From Lytechinus pictus (taxonomy: Eukaryota), in the NCBI RefSeq assembly GCF_037042905.1, contig NC_087245.1, forward strand, positions 30,816,001 to 30,880,000: a DNA stretch of 64,000 nt, written 5' to 3'. A program made the translations under genes and the position numbers. Within the stretch, counting starts at the first letter, position 1. Every line of letters starts with the position of its first letter. The notes under the pieces are model-generated. The model saw nothing but the letters and a program-made list of their open reading frames with translations, did not search any database and was not told the DNA's origin. This document shows positions 18,359 to 50,800 of this stretch, piece by piece.

Positions 18359-18562
18359 CAGTCACACCCACGAAACCGACTCCAAACCGATCGATGATAT
18401 ATCCATCATTGAAAATAACGTAATATCTTTGATCGGTCTGGAGTCGGTTTCGAGCCGGTGTGACTGTAACCGAAACCGACTCCAAACCGATCGATGATAC
18501 ATCATTGGAAATAACGTAATATCTTTGATCGGTCTGGAGTCGGTTTCGAGCCGGTGTGACTG
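18359..18562. mobile_element. 108-bp TA-flanked hairpin MITE plus tandem partial duplicate
   Basis: ta|cagtcacacc...gaaaccgactcca...tggagtcggtttc...ggtgtgactg|ta; second copy 18469-18562 lacks the left tip. Confidence 0.8.

Positions 18563-21685: not shown

Positions 21686-21688
<3 letters not shown>
20702..21688. mobile_element. Tc1/mariner-like non-autonomous element
   Basis: Perfect 29-bp TIR cagtgcgtatcaaaaaaaagtttacactt, TA flanks. Confidence 0.9.

Positions 21689-21748
<60 letters not shown>
21689..21748. repeat. (TA)30 microsatellite
   Basis: Visible. Confidence 0.95.
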
Positions 21749-21751
<3 letters not shown>

Positions 21752-22567: not shown

Positions 22568-22985
22568 TATATTAATAATCACTAGGCGCCTCGGAATAGA
22601 TTATTTCTAGATAGATGGCGCTATTATACATGTATATGCACTGTTCTCATGGCGCTGGGGAGTGGGAGTGCTGGTGCTGAAGCACCATCCAAGATTTTTC
22701 AGGCGGTGCATGCTGCGTATGTTATTCTTTTTTTACCAAAGGCAGCACCCCCTGGAATGCAGGTTGACGAACAAAATTAAAAAAAGAGAAAGGAGTATTA
22801 ACCCATTATTTAGGGGTTTTTGCTGACGGCAACCATCTGAACAAAACCTCCAGCACAGCATCGCCCCCCCCCCCCATTTAAAAATCGTTCCCACGCAGGG
22901 CCCCGACTGTTCGGCAGTATAAGTAGCAATACAAAGTAAGGTATTAATAAGAAAGTCGAGCTACGTGCTGCACAAATCGAGCACG

Positions 22986-26100: not shown

Positions 26101-27612
26101 AATATAATTATTTTTAGATATTTTTTACAGTCGCTTTCGCAAATTTATCTGTCTCCTTTTCGATAATTTCCACAGAAAACAAATTCATTCTAATTTATCG
26201 CTCTGTGAAGTAATGCGATTCCTACGGATAAACACATCAGAGCAAGTAAAGTCTAATGAATCCGAACCAAACAATACTCCAACCGGCCGATTAAAACGAC
26301 CTCGAAAACATTCTGATTGTGTTACATGGCAGGAGAACTGCGCAATCGTCGGGAACTCGGGCATTCTATTGGGCAGCGAGTGTGGTGACGTCATCGATTC
26401 TGCGCAGTACGTCATCCGACTGAATTTGGCTGACGTTGGCGAGAGATTCCAACATGACGTTGGCTCCAAGATTGACGTCATGACAATGAATCATGAGCAG
26501 ATGTCATTGCTAACATCATGTATACCATCATCCCGTGGAAGAAAACCATCCAAGAACTGTAATGATCTGATGAAAGGAATGAACATATTCAAGCAACATA
26601 ACAGAACCCTTTGGTTCTTCAAAACGTGTTCTTTTATTGAGGAAATAAAGGAGGTGTTGGGTCTAATTCATGTGAAGAAGGGATGGGATTTTAGGTTCGC
26701 ATACAGTCCGGGATTTCCCATGAAAGCAGCGAAAAGGTAAGATCAAGAATGAGACCCATGGGATTTTCATGATTATTTCGGGATCTTTCGATTTTTGTTC
26801 ACAAATATTGCTAATTCAAGCTGGGAAAGCATACGATCTTTCTTCCTCAAAGTCGTTTGAATGATCTTCAAATTGCCACCTAAGATGTTTCGGCTTACAA
26901 ATATTTCAACTCAAGTTTACCTTCACTATGTACTGTGGCTGGCTCAAAGACAGAGCCTTGGGCGTCTATAGTCTTCAATCTAGACCTGTTATTGGTTGAA
27001 GTGTCAAATATGAGTATGTGCTTGCAGAATAGATTGAAATCGCACCTCTGAATATTTTTTATGTTTGACGGGGAGCTTCCTCAGTTGTTGATGGCTAAAC
27101 TTTCAAAAGAAAATCCTGTATTTTTGTCTTCCCTTTCTGCCCTTTACTTCACCCTTTTACCCTCCCCCATTTTAATCTCCTTTTTTGCGTCTTCTGAAGG
27201 TAGTGCTAAAAGTATGCACCCACTATTCCCTAAAAGATACATCGCAGGCAGACGTTACCCGTCATCAACCCCTTTTGTTGCTTTTTCTTTTTCTTATTTG
27301 ATTTTTTTAATAATTATTCCTAGGTTACTTGGAGTGCGAATCCCATCATCTGGCTTTGCTGCGTATGTCGCAGCCACCCAATTCTGCCGGGAGATCTCTC
27401 TGTACGGGTTCTACCCGTTCAACCAGACAGGAGGAGCGTCCATCTTAAATCATTATTATGACAAACAACGTAGATCAGGCGCGAAGGTGAAGAAAGTCGG
27501 CCCATCTAAAAACGTACATGACATGCCGTTGGAATATAAACTTCTGACTGATTTGCATAAGCGAGGGGCAATACGTTTGCGAAACGATTGCAAGTCCCAA
27601 AATGTTTCTTGA
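22986..27612 (+). CDS. ST8SIA: Alpha-2,8-sialyltransferase-like (GT29, ST8Sia family), 362 aa; join(22986-23140,24247-24330,26176-26736,27324-27612)
   Basis: Type II membrane anchor ([19 protein letters not shown]); sialylmotif [21 protein letters not shown]...[12 protein letters not shown]; motif [27 protein letters not shown]; motif III HYYD; motif VS HDMPLE; C-terminal Cys. All three introns are phase 2 GT-AG; total 1089 nt including stop. Confidence 0.9.
23761..23938. repeat. 89-bp tandem duplication
   Basis: 23761-23849 and 23850-23938 differ at about 2 positions. Confidence 0.9.
24247..24330 (+). CDS. ST8SIA: ST8Sia exon 2 (stem region, ...AASAIR)
   Basis: ctcccag acceptor, AG|GTAAAA donor, 84 nt open and phase-preserving; could be skipped without frameshift. 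Confidence 0.65.
25345..25399. mobile_element. 55-bp minimal hAT-like element
   Basis: 19-bp perfect TIR catagagatgtatactaat; exact 8-bp TSD gatgaatg. Confidence 0.85.
25415..25810. mobile_element. GC-rich inverted-repeat MITE remnant
   Basis: gccggtgtagcggcggatc vs gatctgccgctacatcggc inverted arms around an AT-rich core. Confidence 0.55.
26176..26736 (+). CDS. ST8SIA: ST8Sia exon 3 (sialylmotif L)
   Basis: ttccacag acceptor, AG|GTAAGA donor, 561 nt. Confidence 0.92.
27324..27612 (+). CDS. ST8SIA: ST8Sia exon 4 (motifs S, III, VS; stop)
   Basis: ttcctag acceptor; TGA at 27610-27612. Confidence 0.92.
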
Positions 27613-28394: not shown

Positions 28395-30139
28395 AACAAG
28401 TGGAACGTCTCTGGAAGTCTCGCCTGCATTACGCGATTCAATATAGCAGCAGTGCTGACTATATGAAAACGACTATTGAATAATTATTCACAAGAAACAC
28501 CGTTCATAATTATGTTAATAAAACACTATATTCATTTACCCTAAATAACCTTTGACGTTGATCATGTTACAAAAGACTCAGAGATACTTGATTACCCTTT
28601 CATTCTTGTTTCATGAACAGGATCCATAAACTTTCAGTTATGATGGCTGTGGCGTGTGATACGTCGAATAATTAAACAAAACCCAAGAATCAGACCGAGT
28701 CCAGTGTGTTGATGATTGTGTGCACAATGCGACTGGTTCAATATGCAATTTAATACAGAATAAACAGTAAATGTATAAACTGAATCGACAACATGTCATA
28801 TCATATTACATAATGTCTACATATTTTCAAAAGCGGCAAATAATGTTGACTTGCATTACAACTTTAAATATTCAACAACCAAGAATGACCTGACATGCTT
28901 CAAGGTCATATCAAGTATTAGCATACTGTAAATGCCATGTATTGATTAATGTATCCTAAATTCACCTTTTTTTGTAAAACAGCTTTCATAATATCAACTA
29001 CGACTTTAAATGCGTTTCTGTTTACTTCTTTATGTTTACGTGGTATATGACAATGCATTCATCACGTGCCCGAAGGCGCCAAATTCAAGTTTCTTGCCTA
29101 TGCACAACCACGCCACGTACGAATGTATATGCTCTCTATTACGTAATGCATGCACGTACACGTACTATGCAGTGTTTTCAATCATGTGAAATAATTCACT
29201 CGGCCTATGATATCTTTGACACATTAATTTAATTTCTTAAAACCATATTTCACCTGACACTCATTAAATGATAACATAGCTAATAAACATGAAGATAACA
29301 AAATAATACTCACGTCATTGGGTTCGTATCACGAATTTGAACAAATAAACGGCAACAATGGAAAAGCAACACGCTTCCCATGACCAGACATAAAAGCAAT
29401 ATGCCCTCAATCGGATAAATTCACATCTATATCATCGATTTACAAGATGAAACAAAGAAAGTCATCTTAACAAATTGAGAAATTACTAAAAACTTCATTC
29501 TGTACACAATGACAATTTATCAATACCCCTAACATGGCCATAGTTCATTGACCTTAAAGGACCTTCTACCATGATCATGTGACCGGAAACTCGCACAGGA
29601 TGTAGAGGGATATTTGATTATTCTTATACCCAAGTTTCATTAACTAGATCCATAAACTTTCAAAGTTATGATGGCAATTCAACAATTACCCCAACATGAC
29701 CAAAGTTCGTTGACCCTGAAAGACCGTTGACCTTGATCATGTGACCTGAAACTCAGGCAAGATGTTCAGTGATACACCATTACCCTTGTGTCAAGTTTCA
29801 TGAACTAGATCCATAAACTTTAAAGTTATGACGAAATTGCAAAAACTTAACCTTGGTTAAGATTTCGATGTTGATTATCCCAACATGGTCCAAGTCCATT
29901 GACCCTAAATGACCTTTGACCTTAATCATGTGACCTGAAATTCGACAATGATATTCAGTAATAATTGATTATCATTGTGTCTAAGTTTCATTAATTAGGT
30001 CCATATACCTTTTAATTCATGAGGACATTTAAAAAACATAGGCTTGTTTAAGATTTCAATTTGACGACGCCGCCGTCGCCGCTGCCGTCGAAAAGGCGGT
30101 GCCTATACTCTCGCTTTGTTATGCAGATGAGACAAAAAA
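28395..30139. mobile_element. Helentron-associated (HINE/DINE-1-like) non-autonomous element with internal tandem repeats
   Basis: aacaag start; subterminal IR gtctcgcctgcat (28417) / atgcagatgagac (30121) followed by A6; ~160-190-bp tgacc...aagtttcatgaactagatccata units. Confidence 0.65.
28648..29508. mobile_element. Probable solo LTR inserted in the HINE repeat unit
   Basis: TGTG...CACA termini; 5-bp TSD atggc/atgac; removal restores the gttatgatggcaatt unit seen at 29665. Confidence 0.6.
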
Positions 30140-30225
30140 CGATTCTTCATTATCTTTAAATCACCTACCAAATAATACACAGATCCTTACCAAATATATT
30201 GCATCACTAGGTCTGCTACTACTAC

Positions 30226-30372
30226 GTACGCAGGATCTTTGAAAGGAGGTGGGAGTTCAAGCTGAAAGAAATGTTGACAACCGCCCCCCCCCCCAAAAAA
30301 AAAAGAAGGGGGGGTTGGGTATCAAAAAATGTATGGGGGATGAACACCTGTCACCCCCATCGTACGCCACTG
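30226..30372. mobile_element. hAT-like MITE, left end decayed
   Basis: Right end cgtacgccactg followed by actacttc; embedded in (TAC)n. Confidence 0.55.
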
Positions 30373-30395
30373 ACTACTTCTACTACTACTACTAC

Positions 30396-30430
<35 letters not shown>

Positions 30431-30434
30431 ATAT

Positions 30435-31941
30435 GGTTTATTTCTGATACGTCTAATGCCAATTCGTCCAATTGCCAACTCGTCTACTATCATTTGGTCT
30501 ACCATCAGTTCGTACACTCACAACATGGTCTACTTTCATATAGTCTGATGCCATTCAGTCTTATTAACAGCTGGTCCGATAGCCATTTAGTCCATATACC
30601 ATTTAGTCTAATTGGATTAAGTGTTATTGTGCAAAATGAATGAAAATAAAATAAACTCCTAAAAAAAAGTTTGGAAATCTGACTTTGATCGATAATTCCT
30701 CCTCGGTTTTAGTATATATCAATGTGTAATTAATATCAATGAATAGATCATTTAATTTTCTTTAAAATGATACCCTACATGATATGATTATGGTTCACAT
30801 GGAGGTGTAGTGCCTTGAAATGTGGGGCAAGGTCCAAATTCAAAAGTTGCAAAATGTCACAATAATGAAAGTCACTGTTCTTTTTTCCGTGGTGATGAGT
30901 GAGTTTCTCAGCGGTTTCTTTTGACTTTGATCGATAATCCCTCCTCGGTTTTAGTAAATATCAATGTGTAATTAATATCAATGAATAGATCATTTAGTTC
31001 TGTTTAAGATGATACCCTACATGATATGATCATGGCTCACATGGAGGCAGTGCCTTGAAATGTGGGACAAAGTCAAATATTCAAAAGTTGCACAATGACA
31101 CAATATTGAAAGTCACTGAGGGAGTCTCTCAGCGGTTTCTTTTAACTGTTTTCATGCACCTTAACATCCACATTAACATGGAATCAATCAAACACACCTC
31201 TGCACAAGCAAACACACAGCAAACAAACAAACATGCATGGGTTTTTCAAACCACGACTCAAACCATGTTATCTCACAGAACCATCACAACATAAACCACA
31301 ACAAAACATATAAAATTAGGAAGCAGGGGCTTGATTTTGAATGGATTTTCATCTCTATTGACACAGATAAAAGAATCATGTTCTGTATTGACCCGTCATC
31401 ACTATTTCTGCTTGTTTTGCAGCTTTTCAATTCAGACCTCACCCAACACTTTTGAATCCTGCTCTTTTCGTAATGGTATGATCATAACAAGCATAGTATC
31501 ATTTTAAAGAAAATTAAATGATCTTTTGAATGATATTAAATATGCATTGTGTAAAATTGGGAGTTGGGAGAAATTAATGGTCAAATTCAGATTTCCAAAC
31601 TTTCTTTGCTCGTTTTGCAGCTTTTCAATTCAGACCTCATCCAACACTTGAATCCTGCTCTTTTCATGATGGCATGATCATAACAAGCATAGTATCATTT
31701 TAAATTGTGTGGAATTGGGAGTTGGGAGAAATTAATGGCCAAACTCAGATTTCCAAACTTTTTTTGAGGGGTTTAGATATTAGACCAAATGGTAATGAGA
31801 CGAAATGGCCATGGATGAAATAGTGATTAGACGAACTGATGATTAGACCAAACGGTTGTAAGACGAAATGTTGATGAACGGATCGGCATTAGACTAAATG
31901 AAAGTAGACCATGTGGTGAGTGGTCTACTTGGCAAATTACC
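30435..31941. mobile_element. Foldback element with degenerate 15-16-bp repeat arms
   Basis: Left ..cgtcta/ggtcta units, right tagacg/tagacc units; GG...CC termini; TSD actaatat/actactat (7/8). Confidence 0.75.
30654..31773. mobile_element. TA-flanked TIR element nested in the foldback; contains two internal direct duplications
   Basis: ta|aactcctaaaaaaaagtttggaaatctga ... tcagatttccaaactttttttgaggggtt|ta; duplications at 30679/30922 and 31410/31610. Confidence 0.8.
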
Positions 31942-32203: not shown

Positions 32204-32272
32204 ACTACTTCTATTACTACCCTACTACTACTACTACTACTACTACTGCTGCTGCTACTACTTCTACAACTA

Positions 32273-32308
<36 letters not shown>

Positions 32309-32326
32309 GCTACTACTACTACTACT
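32204..32326. repeat. (TAC)n microsatellite, left flank of the large foldback
   Basis: Visible. Confidence 0.95.
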
Positions 32327-32487
32327 AGAGCAGGAGCCAGGAGGGGTCAGCATAGCTGAAAAGGTAGACAATTTTCATGTTAATGACGTGATTCCCCATA
32401 TCACACAATGCAATGTATGGGGCGTCTGCCGTGTCCTAAGTGGTGGATGTGGCCGTAGGGGCCCTAAAAAGAGGCCCCAAAATTGAG

Positions 32488-33880
32488 CTAGATCAGCTGG
32501 AAAAGTAACCACCTGAAACCAACAGGAAAATGTTCGACATAGTTCACTTGTACATGAATGATACTTAACTGACACTTTAAGTGGTGGGGCACCCCCGGCA
32601 GACGCCCCCAATTGGGGGCCCCAAATTGAGCTAGATCAGCTGGAAAGGTAACCACTTGAAACCAACAGGATAATGTTCGGCATAGCTCACTTGTATATGA
32701 ATGACACTTAACTGACACTTTAAGTGGTGGGGCACCCCCGGCAGACGCCCCCAATTGGGGGCCCCAAATTGAGCTAGATCAGCTGGAAAGGTAACCACTT
32801 GAAACCAACAGGATAATGTTCGGCATAGCTCACTTGTATATGAATGACACTTAACTGACACTTTGAGTGGTGGGGCACCCCCGGCAGACGCCCCCAATTG
32901 GGGGCCCCAAATTGAGCTAGATCAGCTGGAAAGGTAACCACTTGAAACCAACAGGATAATGTTCGGCATAGCTCACTTGTATATGAATGACACTTAACTG
33001 ACACTTTAAGTGATGGGGCGCCCCCGGCAGACGCCCCCCAAACCCCGCCCCCTCCCAAATTTAGCTAGATCAGCTGGAAAGGTAACCACCTGAAACCAAC
33101 AGGAAAATGTTCGACATAGTTCACTTGTACATGAATGATACTTAACTGACACTTTAAGTGGTGGGGCACCCCCGGCAGACGCCCCCAATTGGGGCCCCCA
33201 AATTGAGCTAGATCAGCTGGAAAGGTAACCACTTGAAACCAACAGGATAATGTTCGGCATAGCTCACTTGTATATGAATGACACTTAACTGACACTTTAA
33301 GTGGTGGGGCGCCCCCGGCAGACGCCCCAAACCCCGCCCCCTCCCAAATTTAGCTAGATCAGCTGGCAAAGTAACCACCTGAAACAAACAGGAAAATGTT
33401 CGGAACAGTTCACTTGTACATGAATGACACTTAACTGACACTTTAAGTGGTGGGGCACCCCCGGCAGACGCCCCCAATTGGGGGCCCCAAATTGAGCTAG
33501 ATCAGCTGGCAAGGTAACCACTTGAAACCAACAGGAAAATGTTTGGCATAGTTTACTTGTACATGAATAATTCATAACTGACACTTTAAGTGGTGAGACG
33601 CCCCCGGCAGACGCCCCCCCCCCCCCAATATTGAGCTAGATTAGCTGACAAGGTAACCACATGAAACCAACATGAAAATGTTTGGCATAGTTCACTTGTA
33701 CATGAATGACACTTAACTGACACTTTCAGTGGTAGGGCACCCCCGCCAGATGCTCCCAAAATCCTGAACCCCCCCCCCCCCAACAATGTTGAGCTAGATC
33801 AGCTGGCAAGCTAAGGTACCCACATGAAACTACCAGGAAAATGTTTGACATAGTCCACTGTTACATGAATGACACCTTAA
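32488..33880. repeat. Left 143-bp tandem array (~10 units)
   Basis: ctagatcagctgg recurs at 32488, 32631, 32774, 32917, 33065, 33208, 33354 and onward. Confidence 0.95.
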
Positions 33881-34426
33881 GTGATGCTCCAGGCTGAAAA
33901 TAATATGAATTAAACAGATAAAGAAAAATCAAACAAACAAATCACTGAGAATTTGATCAAAATCTGACAAGGAATAACAACGAATGGCATTTAGAGATTT
34001 GCATTATTCATGTGAAATAGTTCTAGGCATGTGTTCATGAATATTACATGAGTAAATTGATGTCATATCACCACTTGTTCTTTTATATGTTATTATATGA
34101 AATTAGGTTGTTGTTTTTTCTACCAAGAACTGAAAAAAATTGGATTGACAACTGATTTAAGGCATTATATATTTATTTCTGCAACTCATTTCATTATGAC
34201 GGAGACATACATGTGTCATAAAAAAATGAAACATTTATGATTTCAAGATTGTAATAACATAAGAAAAACGAAAGTGGGGACGTGACATCATCAGCCCAAC
34301 TAATGAATATTCATGATGGTGTGCATATAACTATTTTCACAAAATATTGCTAAACTTTAAAATTCAATAACTTAGTTATTTGTTATCTGATTTTGTTGAA
34401 ATTTTCAGCATTGTGCTCTGTGAATT
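33881..34426. mobile_element. Kolobok-like MITE, right end deleted, inserted at the TTAA of a 143-bp unit
   Basis: gacacc-ttaa|gtgatgctccaggctgaaaa; the repeat resumes at ~34427 (gcactttgagtggtgggg). Confidence 0.75.
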
Positions 34427-36700
34427 GGCACTTTGAGTGGTGGGGAGCCCGGGAGATGCCCCCAAATCCCGACCCCCCCCCCGGAAAGATTATTAACAAC
34501 ATGAAACCAATTAGAAAATATTCTACATGAGTTGTGCTGTTGAGGAGCTGGGAGTAGTAGATTGAGACTGAATCTGATGTTATACTTTTTTCAATTTCAT
34601 TTTATCCATTCCATGTTTCCCATCATGTACTCATCTCCACTATCAAATACGAGGACACCTATGCTACAAACGTTTTATGAAAAAGGAATGGATACATATT
34701 CCTTTTTTCATAACTTAATAATTCAATGAATGAGTATGAATTAGAATTTTAAATAAAATGATAAGTTAAAAGAGGACTAGGAAAAGGAAGGGAATCGGAA
34801 GGGGAAGAATGAGAAAGAGGTTACGAATGGAAAAAGAGAAACGGAACATAAGAGGAAACCAGAAAAATAATAAATAACCTTCACACCGGGCCTTCACACC
34901 TCCATTGCTTCAATGCAAACAAAAATGAATGCGAATAAAGCAGAAATTCGACATGACCTTAAGAAGTAAGAAGTCAAACATCATTTCATTTTTCTGATAA
35001 AACATATTGCCCTGCATTAGAAAACAGTAGGAACATATCTCATTTTCTGAACGCTTAAATGCATTCCTATATACACATCAATACATGTTACGTAAATACA
35101 ATTTAAGGACGTTCCACAGTTATGTTTGTGCGCATCTTGATTTGCGCACTATGGATGGACAGGTGATTAATCAGCTGTAGGTATGAGCCGATTTTACTCA
35201 TTATACACTCTAACTGCAGATCCAATGTTTTATTTTATGAAGCTAATAAACTGGAATTATTCCATAGACCAATTCCTAAAAATACTTCTACAAAGTAGTG
35301 CTGTAAAGTATAATGAACATTACCCCGAGTTTGAATAAATGGTAGAGTGGTTTCAAATTTTTACTCACACAGATACAAAGCATTTGGCGCATTTTTGTAG
35401 TTTTAAAAAGCACATTTGCTCTGATAAAAGTGCTGACAGTTTGAAAACAAGCACATGAACCTCTATTTTCAACGTTTGCACCTCTTAGGTATACCTTCCT
35501 CTACAACTTTGCAAAGTTTGGTGAAAATGACATGGGGTTTGAATAAAGTGCAGCATTTATTGTACTTTTCAAGTTTGTTATTGAAATCTCAGTCTCACAG
35601 ACTGGGTTTTTGTTATCTTTCACCGTATTTTAAGATCTGACAGTGCTGTTTAGATTTAAATGAGCAAACAAATAGCAATATAAATAGATTCTCCATCTTG
35701 AGCATACAATTATTAACTATATTTCAAAATTTGATGAAATTTTCATGGATTTTGACTGAGTAATAGAGGTTTAAACTGATTGTATTGATCGCGTTTGGTC
35801 TAAAAATGCTTATTTCGTTTAAATGCGCAATTCTTAAAAAAACATCCATTTGGGTAAAATGCCCTGAACGTATTGGTGATCATAACCAAAATTATATGGT
35901 ATATGTATATTGTGGATGAGGTTCAGCTCTTTTTTTATGTACTACTGTACATATATTATCAATATCAGATAAGATAAGTGGCTGAAAACGGAAAGGCAGA
36001 AGAGATACCTTTTTCACTTATGACTTACATAAAAGTCGTAAGTAATATAATTAAAAAATGATACAATTATGAAACGATTATCTAAAGTTAAAAATTAGTC
36101 CAGTCAATTTCAGAATGAAAATGCATGAAGATTATAAAAAAAAACAGCAATCAATGAACCTTCTTGTGTTATTGCATGTTACTGTTGACACATTCACACA
36201 GACACACACAAATCTTAATTTGTTTGTAGTTAGCAAGGCAATTTCTCCAGTCTCGTGAAAGTGAAAGAAAAGGGGGAAAAGAGGAAGGGGAGAGGGAAAG
36301 CAAGAACATACAAAAGGGAAAACGAAAGGAAATCGGGAAAAGGAAAGAAAAACTCTTGAGAAAAAAACAAATTATCGTAAAATACTAATAGGCTACACTA
36401 GCATGTTTGGTAAAAAAAGTCAAATAAATGACAAAATTGAACATAAAAGGAAAAGAAAGAGGCAAATATAAGCAGAAAATGACGGTAAAATGGAATGAGC
36501 CAAAAGCTAAATTTGAAAATGAAGAAAAGGGACAGGCAAGAAAAAAAAAAGAGAACTTAAAAACACGACCGGTCTGCCGAGGATTAAAAACAAAGAACGG
36601 GAAGAAAAATGTATGCCATATAACACTGTGTATGAAGTCTATTTTAAACTTGATCAATTTAATGCAGTAATGGTCGCAACCAGGACAAACAAAGTCCTAG

Positions 36701-37224
36701 TCCCGGGGGGGGGGGGGGCACTCGACCAAAAAAGTAGTAGGTATGTGCCGCGGGCAAGACAAAAAACGGGGGCCTTGGAGTGGGCTTATTGTAAAAAGGA
36801 GGTTCCTCGGAATGGGCTTCGGAACTACAAATGTTTGTGTAAACGGGGGTCCTTGGAACGGGTCGCCTTCTAGGAGCGTATATAGCATCCCTATGGAACG
36901 TGCATGCAGCTAGCCCGGCGGCACGACTTCCTTGCACGCTAGCGCAGAGGCGATGGTCGGACAGTGAGCTGCGGCCGCTTTTCACCAAAATTGCGACCAG
37001 AACGGCGTAACGGAAAATATGCGAAGCTTTGGAGCGGATTTCTTTCTTCTTTTTTCTCGATAAGAAGAAAATGCTATGGTTTGGAGCGGCTTTCTTTGTT
37101 CTTTTTCTCAATAAGACAAAAATGCTATGCCCTGGAACGGAAATTTGAGTGTAAAAATGGGGGTCCCCTCTGCGGCACATTGCATTGTATGCATTATATA
37201 CTGAGTGTGCCCCCCCCCCCCGAG
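36701..37224. mobile_element. Unclassified MITE with poly-G/poly-C TIRs inside the large foldback
   Basis: cccg(g)n-cactc / gagtgtg(c)n-g; flanking duplication (ag)tcctag, TSD length ambiguous (6-8 bp). Confidence 0.7.
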
Positions 37225-37914
37225 TCCTAGGCCAAGGTCTAGACACATCCTCCTATATATTTATGTTATATATCCCTACCTATTAAGTAAGCTTTACGCT
37301 GGCAAGAGTTACCGTAAAAAGCTTCTTAATGTCTACAATCTCAAAAGCTACCGGGGACTTTGCCCCAGACCTCATGCAGCAGGGGCTCTTCATCTGTAAC
37401 CTCCAAAGGGCCCTATATAACGGGGCACCTGTATGGACCTTCCTGCATTGAGCTTTATGTTGACGCACTGGCGTATATGGGGTGGGGGGCTTGGTTCCAC
37501 AGCCGGGGGGGGGGGAGAAAATAATGATGACAAGGACAGGAAATGAATGGGGGGGGGGGAATGAAATAATTATATGTAATAAATAATTATGATATATAAT
37601 GTAAAAAGCTATCACATAATTAGAATTTCATTTCAATTGGCCATTTTTTCTGGCTCGCTTTTCTCGCTGGCAACAATATCCCACATTTTATATATGTGCC
37701 ACCTCAAAATATTTGGTTTATTATGCAACTGCGTTGAAGTAATGTGTTGTGTAAATGGTATACCTGGGATTTATTCTATAAGGTTTAAAATGGCTTCATA
37801 TAAAGAGGTAACAAGGGTTCCGCCCCCGGACCCCACCCGCATATCACTAGCACACAGATGGAAGAGTTCTACAAATAAGAACAAAAAGAAAAGGATAGTA
37901 AAAGTAAGAATTTC

Positions 37915-38793
37915 ATTCCAGCTGATCGAGCCCAATTTGGACGCCCCAAATTGGGGGCGTCTGTCGGGGGGAGGGTGTCCCACTACTTAAAGTGTCAGTT
38001 AAGTGTCATTCATGTACAAGTGAACTATTCCAAATATTTTCCTGTTCGTTTCAGTTGGTTACCTTGCCCGCTGATGTAGCTAAATTTGGGAGGGGGCGTC
38101 TGTCGGGGGCGCCCCACCACTTAAAATGTCAGTTAAGTGTCATTCATGTACAAGTGAACTATGCCGAACATTATCCTGTTGGTTTCAGTTGGTTACCTTG
38201 CCAGCTGATCTAGCTAAATTTGGGAGGGGGCAGGGTTTTGGGGGCGTCTGCCGGGGGCACCCCACCACCTAAAGTGTCAGTTAAGTGTCATTCATGTACA
38301 AGTGAACTATGCCGAACATTATCCTGTTGGTTTCAATTGGTTACCTTTCCAGCTGATCTAGCTCAATTTGGGGCCCCCAATTGGGGGCGTCTGCCGGGGG
38401 TGCCCCACCACTTAAAGTGTCAGTTAAGTGTCATTCATGTACAAGTGAACTGTTCCGAACATTTTCCTTTGGTTTCAGGTGGTTACCTTGCCAGCTGATC
38501 TAGCTAAATTTGGGAGGGGGCGGTGTTTGGGGGCGTCTGCTGGGGGCGCCCCACCACTTAAAGTGTCAGTCAAGTGTCATTCATATAAAAGTGAACTATG
38601 CCGAACATTATCCTGTTCGTTTCAAGTGGTTACCTTTCCAGCTGATCTAGCTCAATTTGGGGCCCCCAATTGGGGGCGTCTGCCGGGGGTGCCCCACCAC
38701 TTAAAGTGTCAGTTAAGTATCATTCATGTACAAGTGAACTATGCCGAACATTTTCCTGTTGGTTTCAGATGGTTACCTTTCCAGCTGATCTAG
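37915..38793. repeat. Right 143-bp tandem array (~6 units, inverted relative to left)
   Basis: cagctgatctag recurs; mirrored ORFs on opposite strands in the track. Confidence 0.95.
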
Positions 38794-38950
38794 CTCAATT
38801 TTGGGGCCTCTTTTTAGGGCCCCTACGGCCACATCCACCACTTAGGACACGGCAGACGCCCCATTCATTGCATTGTGTGATATGGGGAATCACGTCATTT
38901 ACATGAAAATTGTCTACCTTTTCAGCTATGCTGACCCCTCCTGGCTCCCG

Positions 38951-39125
38951 TACTATACTACTACTGCTATTACTACTACAACTTCTACTACTTCTACTAC
39001 TACTACTACTACTGCTACTACTATTACGACTACTACTACTACTACTACTACTTCTACTACTACTACTACTGCTACTACTACTACTACTACTGCTACTAAT
39101 ACTACTACTACTACCATACCACCAC
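38951..39125. repeat. (TAC)n microsatellite, right flank
   Basis: Visible; same orientation as the left flank. Confidence 0.95.
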
Positions 39126-39403
39126 CATTATGCTACTACCACTTTTACTATAACGACAACTACAACCTCAATCATCACCATCAATTTTCCACCACCATCA
39201 CTACCATTTCTTGTAATAATATTAGTACTATCATTGCTGCTGTTAATGGTGATGCAACTACTAAAACGATTCTCCTACCACCACTAACACTGAATGCTTC
39301 AACAGATACCGCGCATTCCATTCCACATGCAATACCAACAACTTCTACGGTATTATTCCCCCTATATTCCATCTACTCTTTGTCTGTTGAATTGTTACAT
39401 TAA

Positions 39404-39965
39404 AGGGGTACTCCGGGCTGAAAATGATTATCTCTGAAGAAATGAAGTAAAATTCACTAAGCAAAATGCTGAAAATTTCATCAAATGCATACAAATTTCA
39501 TGAAGTTGCATGCACACCGTCATGAATATTCATTAGATGATATGATGATGTCATGTCCCCACTTTCCCTTTTATGTTATTACACGAAACCATAATTATTT
39601 CCTATTTTCATACACTTATGTATGACTTTCCTTGTCATAGAATAAGTTGCAGCAATGAATATCTAATGCATGAAATATATCAGTATCAATCAAATTTTTG
39701 TAATTCTTGGAGGACAAAATTTGAATAAACTGAATTTCATACAATGAAATGCAAAAAGAACAAGTGGGGATATGACATCATCAATTTACTCATTGGATAT
39801 TCATGAACGCATGCATAAAACCGTTTCACCAAAGTAATGCAAATTTTTAAAATGTCACAACTTGGTTATTTCTTATCAAAATTTTATCAAATTTTCAGTG
39901 TTTTGTTTGTCCAATTTTTCTTTTATCCGTTTAAAATCAGATCATTTTCACCCTGGAGTACGCCT
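39404..39965. mobile_element. Kolobok-like MITE (TTAA TSD)
   Basis: ttaa|aggggtactccgggctgaaaa ... ttttcaccctggagtacgcct|ttaa. Confidence 0.85.
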
Positions 39966-40231
39966 TTAATCAATATGCAAATCAGACGGCTCACATTTGT
40001 ATAAAAACAAAACGTTCATACAAATTTGTTTCGTATCATCATAGCTTGATTTATTTTTATATAGATTATGTACAACTGTAAGAAATAAAATCCTTGCTAA
40101 TCACGGTAAAAACAATTTGAACAAAATCCAATTTCAGTAGATGGCTTGTGATGCAGGATGTGATATCTACAGACACATGTGCATGATGACATAAATGATC
40201 ATAATAAATGGAGTACATAATGGAACAATTA

Positions 40232-40435
40232 CACAGTAAAAAAAAATTATACAACGCTGTTTACTATATGAACCTTACAGTTTAAACAACTGTTTAAATC
40301 TTAAACAACAAAGTTTAATTTTCAATATATAATTGTCAATAAATTAAACATGATTGTTTAAACGGTTAAACAAATACTGTAAGGTTCATATAGTAAACAG
40401 CGTTGTATAAAATCTTAAACAGCGTTTTTACTGTG
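40232..40435. mobile_element. Palindromic EnSpm-like MITE
   Basis: ta|cacagtaaaaa ... tttttactgtg|ta with a long internal perfect inverted repeat (tatacaacgctgtttactatatgaaccttacagt). Confidence 0.8.
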
Positions 40436-40936: not shown

Positions 40937-41250
40937 TGGCCCGTATTCTGAAGTCAGGTTTAACTTAGACCATGGTCTAACTCTGTACTAAAATTATGGG
41001 AAGCCAAAAGTCTAAAAAAAAATATTAAGTTGTATATTTTTTATGTTTACTGTGCTCTTTCCTGATTCAACGATGGTGAAGACGATCACTCTATTTATAC
41101 TTCCTAGACAATTATGAATGATTTGAGAGCCAATTGAGCTGAATTATGATATCTCTATTGTTTGGTGATTATGTAACAATTGGCTGTCCATACTTAAACC
41201 ACAAGTTTAAACCTGAGTTTAAGTTAAACCTGACTTCAGAATACGGGCCT
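40937..41250. mobile_element. Harbinger-like MITE
   Basis: 30-bp TIR ggcccgtattctgaagtcaggtttaactta. Confidence 0.85.
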
Positions 41251-41430
41251 TTGACTTTGAACCTAAGAGCAGGTCACCAGTCATGCTTGAAGATGTGTGT
41301 AATGTACAAACAGCAAAATGAACATTCCAGCACCCTACTTTCATGGGCCCATTTCCTTAAAAGGTACAAGTACAATGTCATATTGTAGCTTTGCCATTAA
41401 TGGTATTAATTGTAAAAGGCAAAGTTACCA

Positions 41431-41566
41431 GGGTCCCGTAACACAAACGTTATCGATTAATCGTATGCTTCATTTTAACAACTGATTGTACATCGTGGTA
41501 AATGCAATCATATCAATCGTTGAAAAGTGTTATACGATCATTACTAAGCTTTGTGTTACGGGCTCC
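41431..41566. mobile_element. ~135-bp Harbinger-like MITE (family also at 44153-44290 and 48744-48875)
   Basis: gggtcccgtaacacaaa / tttgtgttacgggctcc. Confidence 0.75.
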
Positions 41567-44152
41567 TGGTGTGCGTTTCATAAAGCCATTGGTAAATTAT
41601 GAATGACTTTTTGCACAACTGGCGATGACTGTCTTTGCGCTAACTTATATACTCAGTATCCCTATGGAGCTGACATAGCACCAAAGAAAATGTTTAAGAT
41701 GTTTATATAGTCATGCGCAAGTTTACAAACAGCGTAATGGAACATCCACCGGTATCAAATATATCGATCTTTCTGTTCACATTCAAAGATCCAACATTAA
41801 TCTATTAAAGGAATGTTAGTAATGATTAGTAGTAGTTTACTACCACTGTTACTGCTGATATAATGATAATACTAATACACTTTCAAGAAAAGAGAGATAG
41901 GGAAAGAGAAAAGATAGTTGGTAAAAGAAAGGTGACCTTAGTTCTTGATTCTGCAAACAAAACAAAACACTTTCATTTCAACAAAATACAATGACTTATT
42001 TCAATCAAAACAATTCTCAAGTACCTCTTATTGCTCTACTGAGCATTACATTAATGTTAAAAAACAAAGAATTTGTATTATTTAAAGACCTAGACTGGAG
42101 CTAAACGTGAAAATTGACAAATAAAAACTCTATAAAGCTGCACAGCAAAACAATGCATTAACATATTCACCACTTGCCAGCTAAGCATTTCGCTTAAGAA
42201 AACCCAAATTAACAGGTTTCGACTACCGGGCCTAATTTTATGTTTAACCGGCCTGAATTACGTGAAGTGATAATGTGTCAATAGGGTTGTGATTACAGAG
42301 GTTGGAATGCAGAAAAGATGGCTTTTGAGATTGAGATGAATTCAATTTCTTTTTTATTTTGCAGAGGAAAATAGCACTGACATTTATTCAGTGCTCAAAA
42401 AGATGGAACCTGCATTGTTTGACTGTTTTTTTTTTCTTTATTTCTTTGTTTAGCTCTTATTTGGCTTACATTGCTGTGACAGGAAAAACTGTTAAACATA
42501 CATGTAATCAGAGTACAGATAGAGGTGGAGAGCTGTGTCAAATAAGCCGTAAAATAGACATGGAAAAAACCTATACAAAAGCTGTAGGTTTCATTGTTTT
42601 AACATCAAGCAACTGACATTTATGATGTCTCTATGGGACAGCAGTGGAAAAAGAAATATCAAATGTGAAGTCTGAAAAGCAATCAAATCGCCCGGTGTTT
42701 CTGTGTACAATCCTATGGAAGCACAATGCTTCTTACACAACATGGTGTCAAGATTTGATGCTGGTGAAAAGCACAATTAACTCCATTTTCGAAGCCTGAT
42801 AACTGGAGCTTTTCTGAAGCAAAATACTCAGCTGACAAGCAGTGAGAATGCATAAACCTTGCATCGCTGTATTTTGTAGTTCATAGGATTTTGAAAGGTA
42901 TACGACTTGTCAATTCCACTTTATGGTCCTGTCTGGGTCTTTAATGGCAGATAAAAGAACATAACTTTAATAATATTTCATTATAATTATTACATTCTAA
43001 TTAAACTATTATTATATGTTCACTGTATTATTAGTTATGATATTTTTATAGTATACTGAATTCATGTCATAATGGTGTAAGTGAAAGGTATTATAAAAAA
43101 AATATGACTCTAAGAAAAAGAAAAAGTAATTACATCCCAAATTACCTCATTAAACCATAATTAATTATCATATCAAATAAACCACTAGTAATTTTCTTTG
43201 TGTTTTGGTTTTCCTTCTACAAGAAAAAAAAACCCTTCCAGAATCAAATGTGCCCATACAGACATACAGTAAAGCCTAATATCATGGTACAAAAAAATTC
43301 ACACAACTTTTTGACCAAATACACAAACACTGTGAGGCTAAAAAGTGAGGTTAATGACAATAAGGGGGGGGGGGGGACTCTCTGAATGTATCTCTTAAAA
43401 CAGAGGTCCAAAATAATATTCAGGATCAAAATATTATATGACATGATTTGTGGGACATTTCATACATAAGATTCTAAGGTTAAGCTTCTTTGACAAAGAC
43501 CTTGGATGGCCAATTCCATTTAGTGATTAATCACAAATCTCTGTATTGTGGAGCAAAAGTCACATAGCAAACATAAATTTGTTCCCCCTCATGATTTCTG
43601 TCACCCCCAAAAATGTTACAAATTATGCTCCCCTTATTTTCGAAAATGCTTACTACAGAATGCATAGATAGATAATCAGTCATCACAATAATAATTTCTT
43701 CAATTGCAAAATATTAAGTTTATGAGTTACATTATATTACATGTATTTTGCAAATGTAAACATAATCAAGAAAACGATTCATAATCAATTCCAGGCATAT
43801 CAAACCAGTCCACTGACAAAGGCCGAACTGCAAACAATATATCATCACCTTAAAACCTTAAAAATCTGAACATATTGATCGAAGCTCAGAAAAAGCTGTA
43901 TTGTGGCAATGGTAGCAACCCAGTATTGTCTGAAAACCGTCTCGTAATTCATGTAGAGAATGCCTCCTAGGCAAAATTGAGACCAAATGGCCATACACCA
44001 CAACAACTCAGGGACAGCCAGGGCCGGTTGATTGGGATAACTGGAAAAACTGATGGCAGGTACTGTAAATTGCATAGAAAATAACGTAAACATCACACAA
44101 CGTTCATTCTTGAATTCCGTACGCCCATGCCACACCCTAGGTGAGAAGAGCA

Positions 44153-44290
44153 GGGGCGCGTAACACAAAGCTTACAAATGTAGAAATCATCATAGAACTT
44201 TTTCTACGATTGATTGCATTGACTATAATGTACAAGCAATCGTCAAAATCAAGCTTACGATTAATCACTAAGCTTTGTGTTACGGGACCC
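44153..44290. mobile_element. ~135-bp Harbinger-like MITE
   Basis: ggggcgcgtaacacaaagctta / taagctttgtgttacgggaccc. Confidence 0.75.
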
Positions 44291-45569
44291 AGGTCTCCCT
44301 TAAGATTTTATGTAACTTTTTATCATCAATAAAACAGTGCGAAAAACACAATGTGGTCCAATAGAGATTTGGTTTGTTTTGCCAAATTTAAAAGACGATT
44401 ATGACCCATTGGATGCCTTGTCAAAAGTCAGAACGTTTTTCGCTTGGGAATCCCGAAAGCGTCCTTCTCTTGCTGATTCTTACACTCCACCATAGACAAA
44501 ACAATACTATGAAAAGACATACGTGTATAGTGACTTCATGATGGAATTCCTACTAAAAGACGTAGCACAGACTTTGACCAGGTACCTCAATGAGAATAAG
44601 TGAAAAATACCAAGACTAAATTTCTTCTTTCTCCTTATTTTCATGATTATATTAGATTCTACAACAACTCACCCCAAGATCATTAAGAAATTATTATCTA
44701 TGATAATTAGTTAGGCATGATTCAGATTTTTATATCAATCTTCAATCGATCAATTCATCCATTTCAATTTAAAAAAACACACAACCTACTTGTCTGGTGC
44801 AGTTTTTGTGGCCTAATTAAAACAATTCATTATGGATAACCTTATGTCGAGTCGTGCAACTGAAATAGGAAAAAAAAATCAAATTTATGGAAGACCAGTC
44901 ATTTCTCACCAGTTTGTTACACACAATACCAATAGGTTGGCAATATATTGTGTGCATTTCCCATAGAGGGATACAGCTTTCACAATTTCAAAATTAAATC
45001 TTCTTTTGTTCCTCAAATCAGCAACAGCCATTAAAACAATCTTTAAAAAATATATAAGATTTATAAAAAAATAAGGATTAAAATGAGCCAAGATTAATGA
45101 TGAAATATGATCAATTGCCAATTTGCATGTTTAAACAAAGATTTTGTCATTTCCATTATGTTGCCAATTTAGAGTATGTAATGATTAGCTCAGGTCAAAC
45201 AGCTTTAATTCACGAATGGTATCATTTTAGTAAAGCATTCACATGATTTTACATCAGTGGTGATTTTCAGCAAACTTCTTGCCAAATTTCAGCTTTGACA
45301 TTGTGCAGTGTTCCATAAATTTTGACGGTATGAAGGGTCTACCTTGGTGCAACTGCAGTTACAGCAAATTGAGAGAGGTAATAAACATGATTGAAATTTT
45401 CTATTGCATTAAACCATATATATATATACATATATATATATAATATATTAATTAATACACATCTTTTTTTCATCCATAGGGCTGGTATTCTCACTCACGG
45501 TTCAGTGTTAAATAACAATGTTTTTAATTTAAAAAAATATTAAAAACTACAATTATGGGCTGTGAAACC

Positions 45570-46870
45570 ATCACTTGAATGCAACCTTGAACCTTAGAAA
45601 TTGGTCACATTGATGCATGTTGGAAATCTTGGCCATCTAAGAACAAGAGTACTTTCAGTTTTGCCTTGAATGTAACCATGGCCATCTAGCAACCATAGCA
45701 CTTCTCACTCAAATGCAACCTTGACCATTGAAAAGCCATATCATCTTTTTAGTTCTCACTTGAATGCAACTTTGACAATCAAACAGACTTAGCACTTTAT
45801 GTTCATCCTTGAATACAACTTTAATTAACCATCGAACAGCCATACCATATCACCTTTCAGTTCTCACTTAAAGGGGAACCCTGCCTTGGTCATAAATGTT
45901 GTGTTGGAAAAGAGAAAAATAAATAAAACAGAAATGGTGAAAATTTGAAAGAAATCAGACAAACGATAAGAAAGTTATGGCTGTTTTAAAATTGAGATCC
46001 CTAAGACTATGTAGATTTCAAATTAGCAACTGGGTAAGAAAATTATGACAAGGGGCAAGGACAACTTTCCTATAGACCATGTACTTAATTATCAGGGATT
46101 TGTGGTTTTCTCCAAAGTACCCATTCCCCTGAAGAATTAATCTAAATATAACCCAGGAAGTATATTGTTTTATGTCTTCATGAAAGAAAAATATAATTTG
46201 AACTATAACTTTTGAAAAAAAAAAGAAATTTCAGCCATTTGATGTATTGGAGTACATGGAAAAGTAGCCCATGCCTTACATCACTATGACATCACATATG
46301 CGGCCAATTTGAAGTCTCCATGGGAATATGAATTTTTACTCCTTTCAAAAATTCAAAACTTTCTTATTGTTTGTCCGATATTGTTCAAACTTTCACCTAT
46401 AAATTTGTCTGATTTTTCTTTTTCCTCTAAAACAAGTATATTTGGGCTGGATTCCCCTTTAAATGCAATTTTGACCATCTAACAGCAATTTCAATTAGAG
46501 TTCTCACTTGAATGCAACTTTGAACATCTAACCGCCCCATCACTTTGAGTTCTCACTTGAATGTAACTTTGACAATCAAACAGCGATATCACTCGGAGTT
46601 CTCACTTGAATGCAACTTTGACAATCAAACAGCTATATCACTTTGAGTTCTCACTTGAACGCAACTTTGACAATCAAACAGCTTATACCACTTTGAGTTC
46701 TCACTTGAACGCAACTTTGACAATCAAACAGCTATATCACTTTGAGTTCTCACTTGAATGCAACTTTGACAATCAAACAGCCAAATCACTTTCAGCTATC
46801 ACTTGAATGAAACTTTGATCATCTAACAGCAAGAGAACTTTGAGTTCTAAGTAAAATGCAAACTTATTAT
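45570..46870. repeat. 49-bp minisatellite array downstream of the Rab32 stop, interrupted by a MITE
   Basis: Unit ttctcacttgaatgcaactttgacaatcaaacagctatatcactttgag; homogeneous at 46500-46800, degenerate at the edges. Confidence 0.9.
45872..46458. mobile_element. Kolobok-like MITE (TTAA TSD)
   Basis: ttctcac-ttaa|aggggaaccctgcc ... ggctggattcccct|ttaa-atgcaa. Confidence 0.85.
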
Positions 46871-47730
46871 CAAACCGAGGTTCAATAAATTACCCGAGGG
46901 AGGGGAACAACACGCACCTAGAAGAATTCTCGACCATTCTTGTCTGAATATTCATGGACAACTGGCACATTGCGATTGTAACTTGAAAGCCACCTAGTTC
47001 ATCAAACAACCATGGAGCAAGAGTCCCTGGTAATGATCGCATGGTAAAAAGTGATTACCGAAAGAGTAAATTACTTGGTAGAGGCATTCCTATGGGTTAA
47101 TCATCTTCAATGCAAATTAAAAAGGTGCATCACTTCTTCACAAATCATGTCTTAATTTGTTCAAAGGAAAATGTACAAAAGTGCAGCTGCATGATCTTGA
47201 AAGCATTATTGTCTTGTTTTTTTTTTTTGTGAGTGCATTTTACCGTTTTCAGTCAACTCACTATTCAGTAGAAGCGTACCCTTGAACACAGATTTCTCAA
47301 ATAAAAATGATAAAAAGATATTAACAGAAAATGACAAATGTGAAAATTAACATATCAGTAAATATTTGTTTAAAAATATACAAGTTGATTTGATAGCTTT
47401 AAATTAGAACCCGCTTGTCATAAGTCTCAATGTATAGGTCACACATTATAATCTTGCCTCTAATTGCCTTAGATCTGCTTGCGAGCCAGCACGGATCTCA
47501 CATACGAATAACTGAGATTGGGTGAACATATGCCTTAAATAGATTTACGTACATTACATTCCAATTCAATGGTGAATGATTAGTGAGTAACAGACACCAT
47601 ACAGCTCAGGTATATATTCATTTCAATAGCTGTGGAATAATGTTAGGTGTACAGCACATGTAAATACATGTATATCACTGAATGGTAGAAAAGGGAGAGA
47701 AGAAGAGGGGAAAGGGTAATAACTAGGGGG

Positions 47731-47841
47731 TCAGCAACACGCCCCCTTCTCTTCCACCGGTGGTTTTTCACCATCTAACTTGAAAGGATCCCCATCTGGT
47801 TCAGTCTCCTCGTGGTTTATTGCTTTGTCGTTGGCTAGGAT
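47731..47841 (-). CDS. RAB32: Rab32 last coding exon (ILANDKAIN...EEKGACC*)
   Basis: ctgcag acceptor; CC motif immediately before TGA. Confidence 0.92.
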   Translation of the reverse strand: MLANDKAINHEETEPDGDPFKLDGEKPPVEEKGACC

Positions 47842-50800
47842 CTGCAGGGTTAGAGAAAAAAATGGAATGAGAGAGATTAAAAGGGAAGACAAAGATAAAA
47901 GAGGTTTCTATCATCACAATAGAAAATCAAGCTTAACATATGAACTTATGTCTACTGTACTGTAATTCCCAAAAGATTTGCACAGGAACCATCCAGGGGT
48001 CCGTTTCATAAAGCTGTTCGTAAGTTAAGAGCGACTTTAAGAACGACTGGTGATCCTTTTTATGCTCTAAACCATCGCCAATGAATCTACCATTTACCAC
48101 AAGAAAGGATCCCCAGTCGTTCTTAAAGTCGCTCTTAACTTACGAACAGCTTTATGAAACACCCACCAGTTCTAGTAAACAAATATATCAGGCTGTGAGA
48201 AAGTATAGTGGAATTATTTATCTGAGGTTGGTCTGGCAATATAGTACTTTTGCCAGTCCAACCGAGGATAAACAATTCTCACTATGCTTTCAATTGAAAC
48301 GCCTGATATATTTGTTTTATATCCTACTTTTACTAATTCAAAACCAAAATCTAAGCGCTGAGCTTGCAAAGTCTGGTTACTTGCATAGAATAACCTACTT
48401 TTCTCCAAGCCACTGAACTAAGCGGAACAAGGATAAGTGCCTGCACCGACGCAACACAGGACTTGCCCGGGAGAGACAGCTCCCTGGCCGGTGCGCCCGA
48501 GAGTTTAGCTAAATATCCAGTTTTCTGAAATAATCACATCTGAATATTGGTATAGCGAAAAATATATCGAGGTCTGACGTCACGCAACATCATATTGAAA
48601 TATATTTGGTCACATGATGCTATTTGAACCTAAATGTATCACTACACAGGATTAGTCAATGTAGGATATAAAAGGCAATGGGTCACATCATATTAAAAAT
48701 CTGAACAATAGACAAAAACAAGAGGATTCTTCCAATAAAATTAGGGGCCCGTATCACAATGCTTAGCAATGATCATAGAACATTTTTCTACGATTGATTC
48801 CATTTACTACAATGTACCAATCAATCGTGAAAATCAAGCGTACGATTAATCGCAAACCTTTGTGTTATGGGACCCAAATGTAGAGATCTATGGAAAGTCA
48901 GAGTGAGCATGAGAGAGAAATAGAGTGAGAGTGACAGAGTAGGGGGGGGGGTAGAAAATACAATTTGAAAGCCGAGCATCAGATTGCGACAGGGAAAAAT
49001 GGCATTTCTTTCCAGGATCTATACTTAAATAGCATTATAACAATGATCATGTGGTCACTCCCTCTTTCAGACATTTTTGTTGTGTGCTTAATTGGTTCTC
49101 CAATAGCACTGTATTATCTGATGATAAACAGTTGGAGAGTAATTTAGAAGAGGAAGTCGTTAATGACACCATCAAAGTTTTGCTTCTATCGTTTCTGACA
49201 ATTAAGTCTCCAAGAAGATCTTTTCGCCATTGTACTGTACCACACAATAAGCACAAAATGTTTTCTAATTAATTATATGTACCTTCCTCAGTAACAATTG
49301 TTAATGAAAAATTCAGGTTTGCTTTTAAAATTCAATAGATTAAATTCAGAAGAAAAAAAATCAAATTTAGTCGAATAACAAAATGAATAATAAATTTAAG
49401 CTTCAATTTCATTAAGACACATGCGAGCAGCTTCCGAAAGATGTGTGTCACTTGATGTACATTCCATCAGATGCAATTTTCTCAGAAATTTAATAATGGT
49501 CGTTTCTGGGGAAGTTACAGGTAAAGACCCTTGTGCATTGCAAGAAGTTAATGACAGGTTCGAATTTCCCTGGTTCCACTCCGTTTGCTCTAAACTATCA
49601 TCAAAAGTCATTTTACAACTTCATGTCTTTTTAATTGGTGACAGACTAGATTTACTCAAGAATAGGGTGGTATAAAATTTCAAGAAATTTTATGTATATC
49701 CTCATGAATTTCTTTTTAACTCTTCCTAAGCATAAATGAATTCAATAACAAAAAACAAAAAAAGCTAAATTGATAGATGAATTTCAAAGTTTCCAGTGAA
49801 TTTAATGGGCTTGAATAGATAACATTCAGTAATTATCTGGTGCGGGCTTGGTCCGGACCTGACCCAAAATATGGTGCTTCTCAGAGCAGCGCTGAGTCAG
49901 CCTGAACTTACTTGATTAACGGTCTTAAAGAGTTGGGACTTAGCACGGAAAAGTGACCTACTGAACATAGCATAGTGCAGCAATTTGATTAACGGGTAAG
50001 ACTTTTAAATGCTGTAATAGCCACCTTGTAAAAAGTCAGAGCCTCACATTTCCCAGAGGAATCCAGCAAGCAGCTTTTCATTATTCCGGTTCTGTGCAAG
50101 CAATGCGGTGGCGTTGCTGGCAAATTACCCACAACAAAGTTTTGAGCATGTTCAAATCAGACTTGCGTGCGCTTCTTCGTGTTAGATGCGTGCAAGATAC
50201 TGTCAATGCCGGCGACCTCCGGGTAGCAAAATAGTTACCCACAAGTCACACGCAAGGCTTGCATGGAACGATGTGACAGGGCCATTATAAATCATCACAT
50301 TTCACCATAGGCAAAGTAATGACCATGCAATGAAAAGACACATTCAGGTAGCACCTTCATATTGGGATTCCGGCTAAAAGACAGGGCAGAGACTTTTTAA
50401 CAAGTTGCCTCAGAATTTCACTTACACTGGTGACTAGAAACCTTGCAGCTTCATCAATGTTGATGTTGTCTTTGGCCGATGTCTCAAACCAGTTGATGAA
50501 CCCTTTATCCTTGCAGTACTCGTCCATCTGACTGCTATTATTAACAAGGCCTTCTTTGGTTTGATCACACTGAAATTAAGCACACAAAAAATCAAGCAAT
50601 ATTAGGATTAATTGATGGTACATACTCTGCAGCTCATATTCTTGAAAGAAGTTTCACTTGTACCATGGTACAAAACCATGGAATATGCAGATTTCTCGTA
50701 TAATCGCACTTAATTCAAGAGTAAATTTAGTGACCTTTATAGCCCAAAGCATTTATAATTGGATTTTTCCTAGTGTACACAATGAAATAAGTATAATTAT

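Follow-up and report, generated by a model that had tools for sequence, protein, structure and literature searches.

What kind of mobile element, if any, splits a (TAC)n array near the middle of the 64,000-nucleotide stretch of the Lytechinus pictus genome analysed here (contig NC_087245.1, positions 30,816,001 to 30,880,000; the window, in which all positions are given), and to which transposase would it answer? A preliminary description of this sequence had seen a foldback element with hAT-like ends, whose inverted arms carry and disperse a satellite monomer. Our analysis makes it very probable that positions 32326-38955 (6630 bp) are a genuine insertion of a foldback DNA transposon that is non-autonomous and belongs to a multi-copy sea-urchin family. 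More cautiously, we lean towards a Mutator-type, Phantom/Tm1-like element that is moved in trans. Membership of the Mutator superfamily is unproven; it is in end layout and general plan that the sequence would resemble a Mutator foldback.

The extent of the element was established from its ends. A scan of every symmetric boundary between 32318 and 32341, 24 in all, singled out 32326/38955 as the sole one at which the first three bases match and an exact target-site duplication (TSD) of at least 3 bp lies outside. Both ends then start with TAG, and the flanking repeat is exact at lengths of 3, 6, and 9 bp. The flanks had been described as (TAC)n on the same strand, which Tandem Repeats Finder (TRF) confirmed, and excision of 32326-38955 together with one TSD copy leaves an in-phase TAC array. 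From the outside inwards, each end is laid out as TSD, 7 unlike bases, GGA as the start of a perfect inverted repeat, a 154-bp flanking domain, the array, and the middle (Table 1). The sole symmetric boundary with an exact 8-mer is 32324/38957, its first two bases being unmatched, and a 7-bp TSD fits no matching boundary of the element. The length of the TSD cannot be fixed at this (TAC)n site, because the 9-mer is common in the array.

The outer arms (32326-32754 and 38527-38955) extend over 429 nt and are 97% complementary, with 14 mismatches and without gaps. Three of these 14 mismatches fall in the first 7 bases and two in the following 154, the outer non-repeated domain, which accords with the earlier mention of near-identical terminal inverted repeats (TIRs). 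This clustering suggests that the 7-bp ends are unlike by construction. Within the window, the terminal 16-mer was found solely at the two ends of the element.

Behind the flanking domains lie tandem arrays, which TRF placed at 32473-33759 in the left arm (period 143, 9.0 copies) and at 37979-38808 in the right arm (period 143, 5.0 copies, or period 289, 2.9 copies). Anchoring on unit motifs gave 10 left units (L1 to L10, the last partial) and, in inverted orientation, 6 right units (R1 to R6) plus a 15-bp stub, so that both methods agree with the approximately 10 and 6 copies of a 143-bp unit first proposed. Units are about 143-148 bp long in both arms, with a range of 139-158 bp in the left array. 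Local alignment pairs 1007 nt of one arm with the other at 94.1%, and the arms could consequently form, as single-stranded DNA, the stem of about 1 kb that had been envisaged. The units fall into two classes, one ending in a 16-bp palindrome and the other in a C-rich stretch, and their partial alternation produces the 289-bp period. The palindrome that had been attributed to the unit as a whole thus stands for one class, being perfect in 6 of the 16 units; it is missing from the second class and was accompanied by no folding signal, as the monomer folds no better than its shuffled versions (z -0.67; 54 of 200 shuffles fold as well). The flanking domain (32326-32486) is somewhat more stably folded than its shuffled versions (z -2.34; matched by 3 of 200), with small hairpins in its inner half. 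A length of 143 bp is too short for a nucleosome plus linker. Since no 10-bp AA/TT/TA periodicity was found in the unit (410 and 252 of 500 shuffles reach the observed values) and its folding is not unusual, the remark that the monomer is of near-nucleosome length finds no support. Flanking domain and unit have in common a 13-mer, inverted and reached by 1 of 500 shuffles, and a 10-mer.

The arms also retain traces of their history. Units L5-L7 are identical to R1-R3 at 420 of 431 positions and L1-L3 at 404 of 428, while L1 and L5 agree at 141 of 143 positions and L4 and L6 at 145 of 146. Because L5-L7 fit R1-R3 better, and L1 and L4 so closely resemble L5 and L6, the left arm appears to have gained four units recently; L1-L4 look like a later duplication of L5-L6, to which two hybrid units would have been added. 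Unequal exchange or slippage would change the number of copies independently in each array, and innermost units would decay and collect insertions. The inner units of the left arm are indeed farthest from the majority sequence (21 differences in 143 positions for L9 and 36 in 126 for L10). Arrays of this kind could act as a seed of satellite DNA, although in the present element they are short repeats internal to the TIR.

Evidence of a family comes from public sequencing data. Words of 32326-32620 were present in 19 runs of 7 studies, and the reads of four of these runs were compared with 32296-32615; 43 letters of this query (32296-32338) were skipped as repeat, so that the ends of other copies were not read. 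The other 15 runs, with their small word shares, were left out of account as to host or habitat. The unit-to-unit joint was seen in all four of the runs compared. In run X9, one outer-domain contig, 186 letters long and with 14 differences in 184, reached a depth of 1521, compared with 44-67 for four minor contigs or joints; this 23-35-fold excess suggests that the animal has tens of near-identical ends. The presence of outer domain and tandem unit at high depth argues for a multi-copy family and, with no coding capacity found, bears out the earlier view of a non-autonomous transposon of a repeated family. Run X1 lacks the alleles that the window has in three units and is therefore not from the same individual; it may be from a related species. 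In run X15 the outer domain occurs in two versions (2 differences in 145 and 9 in 154), and the run also contains a 406-letter contig in which last unit, stub, and middle follow in order, as read from lengths and depth. This contig has an insertion at the same place as in R6, lacks several of the changes of R6, and matches the inner junction of the window at 27 of 30 letters (by eye), which suggests that the arm and the right-hand part of the middle move together, unless the contig is an allele of the locus.

The same data bear on the idea that the element disperses a free satellite. The median ratio of unit depth to outer-domain depth is 7.2 in X9 and 2.6 in X1, with extremes up to 17-23, values that are rough and come from runs that may represent related species. 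A unit depth a few-fold above that of the outer domain is of the order expected from 6-10 units per arm; large free arrays are consequently not indicated, and the idea finds no support here. Exact-pattern scans with the end, the conserved block or the unit returned 0 loci in metagenome contigs, prokaryote genomes, and viral contigs. A description of the family was not found in the literature searched, a search that left outside Repbase, Dfam, and most subscription papers. In contigs of three of the four runs, the 35-base block at 32420-32454 was alone held in common, with other letters before it and a 20/30 match after it. Contigs of this type represent a diverged sister family. The 13-mer common to flanking domain and unit sits in this block and is thus also kept in the diverged relative.

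The assignment to a superfamily rests on comparison with characterized elements. Tm1, a Mutator/Foldback (Phantom-like) family of Meloidogyne nematodes (Gross and Williamson 2011), combines 9-bp TSDs, unlike 7-bp end motifs, GGA, and tandem repeats, and an autonomous copy encodes a Phantom-like MULE (Mutator-like element) transposase (PMC3169594). Our element resembles it in the fit of a 9-bp TSD, in unlike 7-bp motifs outside the inverted repeat with GGA next, in tandem repeats that are unequal in number between arms, in a non-coding middle with nested insertions, and in similar arms, those of Tm1 being about 93% alike on average (PMC3169594). Furthermore, MULEs have TSDs of 8-11 bp and are characterized by long TIRs of hundreds of bp (PMC6446971), a feature present here, and most foldbacks are thought to be Mutator elements (PMC4079207). 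In comparisons made by eye and after the fact, the right end read inward matches Tm1 motif A2 plus GGA at 7 of 10 positions and the left end matches motif A1 plus GGA at 5 of 10; rows of the Tm1 supplement give the right motif on the top strand (PMC3169594). At position 7, A and G stand on the same sides in both elements. GGA makes up about 1% of the 3-mers in the window. The two elements differ in their repeats, which in Tm1 are about 14 bp long and directly follow GGA, whereas a 154-bp flanking domain and then units of about 143-148 bp follow it here.

If the element is indeed of the Mutator type, a transposase encoded elsewhere would bind both of its ends and probably also the words common to flanking domain and unit. 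The latter proposal is made by analogy with Galileo, for which TIR repeats have been put forward as secondary transposase sites (PMC3573991). The transposase would then cut outside the 7-bp motifs and insert the element between cuts staggered by 9 bp in a (TAC)n array. A bolder proposition, and one we consider rather doubtful, is that the arrangement of 9-bp TSD, 7 unlike bases, and GGA, with A at position 7 of one end and G at that of the other, is a conserved recognition signal of one Mutator/Phantom lineage found in nematodes and sea urchins. If true, the family would represent the echinoderm branch of that lineage, with arms in which a two-unit higher-order repeat grows within the TIR, and would serve as a small, datable model for the origin of higher-order structure in satellites.

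A number of observations weigh against our interpretation of the element. The 9-mer of the candidate TSD also occurs at 18 of 28 and 21 of 39 in-phase starts of the two flanks, and a model of mutation only favours the hAT boundary over 32326/38955 by a factor of about 1.6. No second insertion site or empty site was seen in the public reads, for which 32296-32338 was skipped. Just 1 of the 19 public runs contained at least half of the left-end words, and the depths given for runs are rough sums over contigs, not true copy numbers. Support for the split into two unit classes was weak in the tree of units, from which partial L10 and the stub were excluded (72/99, 0 starred branches). Repbase asks that the 11 terminal bases align with those of a classified member and differ at no more than 1 position (PMC4455052), and no such match was found to Tm1, the sole MULE whose ends were compared. 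Finally, the first two bases are TA whereas Tm1 ends begin with CG or GG, and unlike in Tm1 no MULE transposase was seen in this copy with Pfam in six frames.

As the main alternative, the element could have the same boundaries but be of the Academ type, with the TAG...CTA ends ascribed to that group and a TSD of 3 bp (AcademX) or 9 bp (AcademH). Both ends of the element start with TAG, which fits. The TSDs of AcademX measure 3-4 bp and those of AcademH 9-10 bp, so that 3 and 9 are both suitable (PMC10045372). We nevertheless hold this explanation to be improbable, as it leaves the match of the 7 bp and GGA to Tm1 unexplained; Academ termini were not found in the literature searched, which included passages of PMC4455052, PMC8969392, and PMC9143410.

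We give little credence to a foldback of another superfamily, such as a TA-target Tc1/mariner-like element bounded by 32328/38953. Exact TA flanks are found on both sides of that boundary, and foldback structures have evolved within several superfamilies, a Tc1/mariner element being one case (PMC3169594); however, 3 of the first 5 terminal bases mismatch there, and the empty site would also need a phase break in the array.

A hAT (Buster-like) or P/Galileo-type element at 32331-38950, with CA-type ends and an 8-bp TSD, is a shade less credible still. Its left end has CAG at 32331, and the flanking 8-mers are 6/8 alike with TA at positions 4-5, as in Buster targets (PMC3517528). Galileo, a P-type foldback, moreover has TIR repeats of about 210 bp (PMC3573991). 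The right end reads CGG, not CAG, and the hAT-like CAG termini first described thus exist on the left only. The 8-bp TSD proposed with them is inexact, with 2 of 8 positions differing, while the adjacent 154 nt of the arms contain only 2 mismatches. Had a Buster-type element entered a pure array, the duplicated target would read TACTACTA, a sequence absent from both sides. hAT elements have TIRs of 5-27 bp and lengths under 4 kb (PMC3517528), unlike the long repetitive arms of about 1 kb and the 6.6 kb seen here. The hAT boundary loses to 32326/38955 solely because its empty site would require a phase break in the TAC array, and such breaks number 2 in the 339 bases of TAC array in the window. 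On this basis 32326/38955 is preferred, at rough odds of about ten to one.

It is about equally unlikely that the segment is not one mobile unit but arose by inverted duplication in place, by separate insertion of two single arms around host DNA, or as an artefact of assembly. The middle does resemble ordinary intergenic DNA with nested repeats, none of the listed contigs spans even the 320-base test stretch, and the X15 contig that shares the inner junction may come from this locus on another haplotype. Against this, both outer flanks keep one TAC phase, the outer domain is many-copy in independent public runs, and the two arms diverge by 2-6% and in the order of their units, which a simple assembly mirror would not produce.

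The Mutator-type foldback that we favour would thus take over from hAT as the lead for classification, and its end signature could sort many unclassified foldbacks of sea urchins. TU elements of Strongylocentrotus purpuratus (Liebermann et al. 1983) are reportedly foldbacks with internally repeated arms, a variable middle, and outer-domain units of 15 bp; by description, the unit of our element is ten times longer. Short units had been considered the rule in foldback arms, but Tetris has units of about 220 bp (PMC4079207) and Galileo F of about 210 bp (PMC3573991), and long units in foldback arms are consequently not new. Tetris of Drosophila virilis (Dias et al. 2014) also shares with our element a flanking domain, a non-coding middle, and a stretch common to unit and flanking domain. 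Its TSD is 8-10 bp, and it was assigned to Mutator from TSD size alone (PMC4079207). Compared by description, the two differ in that Tetris units form free arrays of kb size, seen by fluorescence in situ hybridization and in the assembly (PMC4079207), and none are indicated here. In Galileo F, a member of the P superfamily from Drosophila mojavensis, the number of tandem TIR repeats likewise varies independently in each arm; it differs in its 7-bp TSD, P-type transposase, and up to 3 repeats (PMC3573991). The dimer pattern, the recent one-sided duplication, and the inward decay of our element illustrate the route from transposon end to satellite that is known from Tetris and Galileo. The element adds to a known kind of foldback, with no new mechanism and with its superfamily not proven.

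The middle domain had been described as about 3.4 kb without a transposase ORF (open reading frame), in keeping with the 0 Pfam matches at E<=1 in all six frames when 33890-37900 was translated with stops as X. Three ORFs of the middle, submitted to Pfam individually, likewise gave nothing, and Rfam gave 0 matches at E<=0.5 for the middle domain. The palindromic repeat that interrupts L10 (33887-34426) has two other copies in the window (17643-18174 and 39395-39969), the three being 72-79% alike; the L10 copy is 76-79% alike to 17654-18116 and 39504-39958. A second nested insertion (36701-37222) contains an internal 52-bp tandem. The middle has accumulated insertions of common repeats, and captured genes were not seen there; the suggestion that the element moves cargo accordingly finds no support, no recognisable gene piece being present.

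Table 1. Coordinates, strand, and properties of the element, its target site, and neighbouring genes in the window.
Feature	Positions	Strand	Remarks
Left half of (TAC)n target array	32204-32325	+	TRF; last 36 bases 97% one TAC phase
Candidate 9-bp TSD, left copy	32317-32325	+	Exact match to 38956-38964; last 3 or 6 bp fit too
Left 7-bp end motif TAGAGCA	32326-32332	+	4/7 match to right motif
Left flanking TIR domain (non-repeated)	32333-32486	+	Begins GGA; 2/154 mismatches to right arm
Left array L1-L10	32487-33886	+	Two unit classes, partly alternating 289-bp pattern; inner units most decayed, L10 short
Nested palindromic dispersed repeat	33887-34426	.	Interrupts unit L10; unit sequence resumes at 34423
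Degenerate continuation of left array	34423-34530	+	blastn 79-82% to units
Middle domain, non-coding, mostly AT-rich	34531-37915	.	About 3.4 kb if 34423-34530 counts as arm
Nested 520-bp insertion	36701-37222	.	G/C-run ends; exact 8-bp flanking repeat (7-bp readings fit too)
Right array R1-R6 and stub (37916-37931)	37916-38794	-	TRF, motif anchoring
Right flanking TIR domain	38795-38948	-	Begins GGA on - strand
Right 7-bp end motif, TAGTACG read inward	38949-38955	-	
Candidate 9-bp TSD, right copy	38956-38964	+	Exact match to left copy
Right half of (TAC)n target array	38956-39114	+	Same phase as left half; 0 phase breaks
OATP/SLCO transporter gene	2124-5413	-	Exon match to OATP/SLCO4A1-like protein
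Glycosyltransferase-29 sialyltransferase-family gene	exons 26108-27612	+	One neighbour of the element
Ras-family GTPase gene	exons 50360-59184	-	Neighbour on the other side of the element

The element lies between a sialyltransferase-family gene and a Ras-family GTPase gene. None of the ORFs scanned on its two sides, 5 at 28978-31452 and 15 at 41143-50231, reached a Pfam cut-off, and the insertion site is therefore probably intergenic. Farther away, an exon of the OATP/SLCO gene has its match in OATP/SLCO4A1-like proteins of Lytechinus (98%) and Strongylocentrotus (91%), in line with a sea-urchin host.

Other repeats were recorded in the window. A second, smaller foldback-like element at 11283-12972 consists of two inverted arms, with 9.6 and 6.1 copies of a 15-bp unit, separated by about 1.4 kb, and its outer ends have diverged; the size of its unit resembles that of the TU elements. 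An imperfect palindrome of 830 bp (81%) at 21670-22572 adjoins a (TA)30 run. Palindromes resembling miniature inverted-repeat transposable elements occur at 453-910, 18353-18568, 40247-40410, 48003-48160, and 58238-58746, and those at 453-925 and 58238-58746 are related. Finally, a 49-bp tandem array (7.9 copies) and a decayed neighbour occupy 45625-45872 and 46459-46875.

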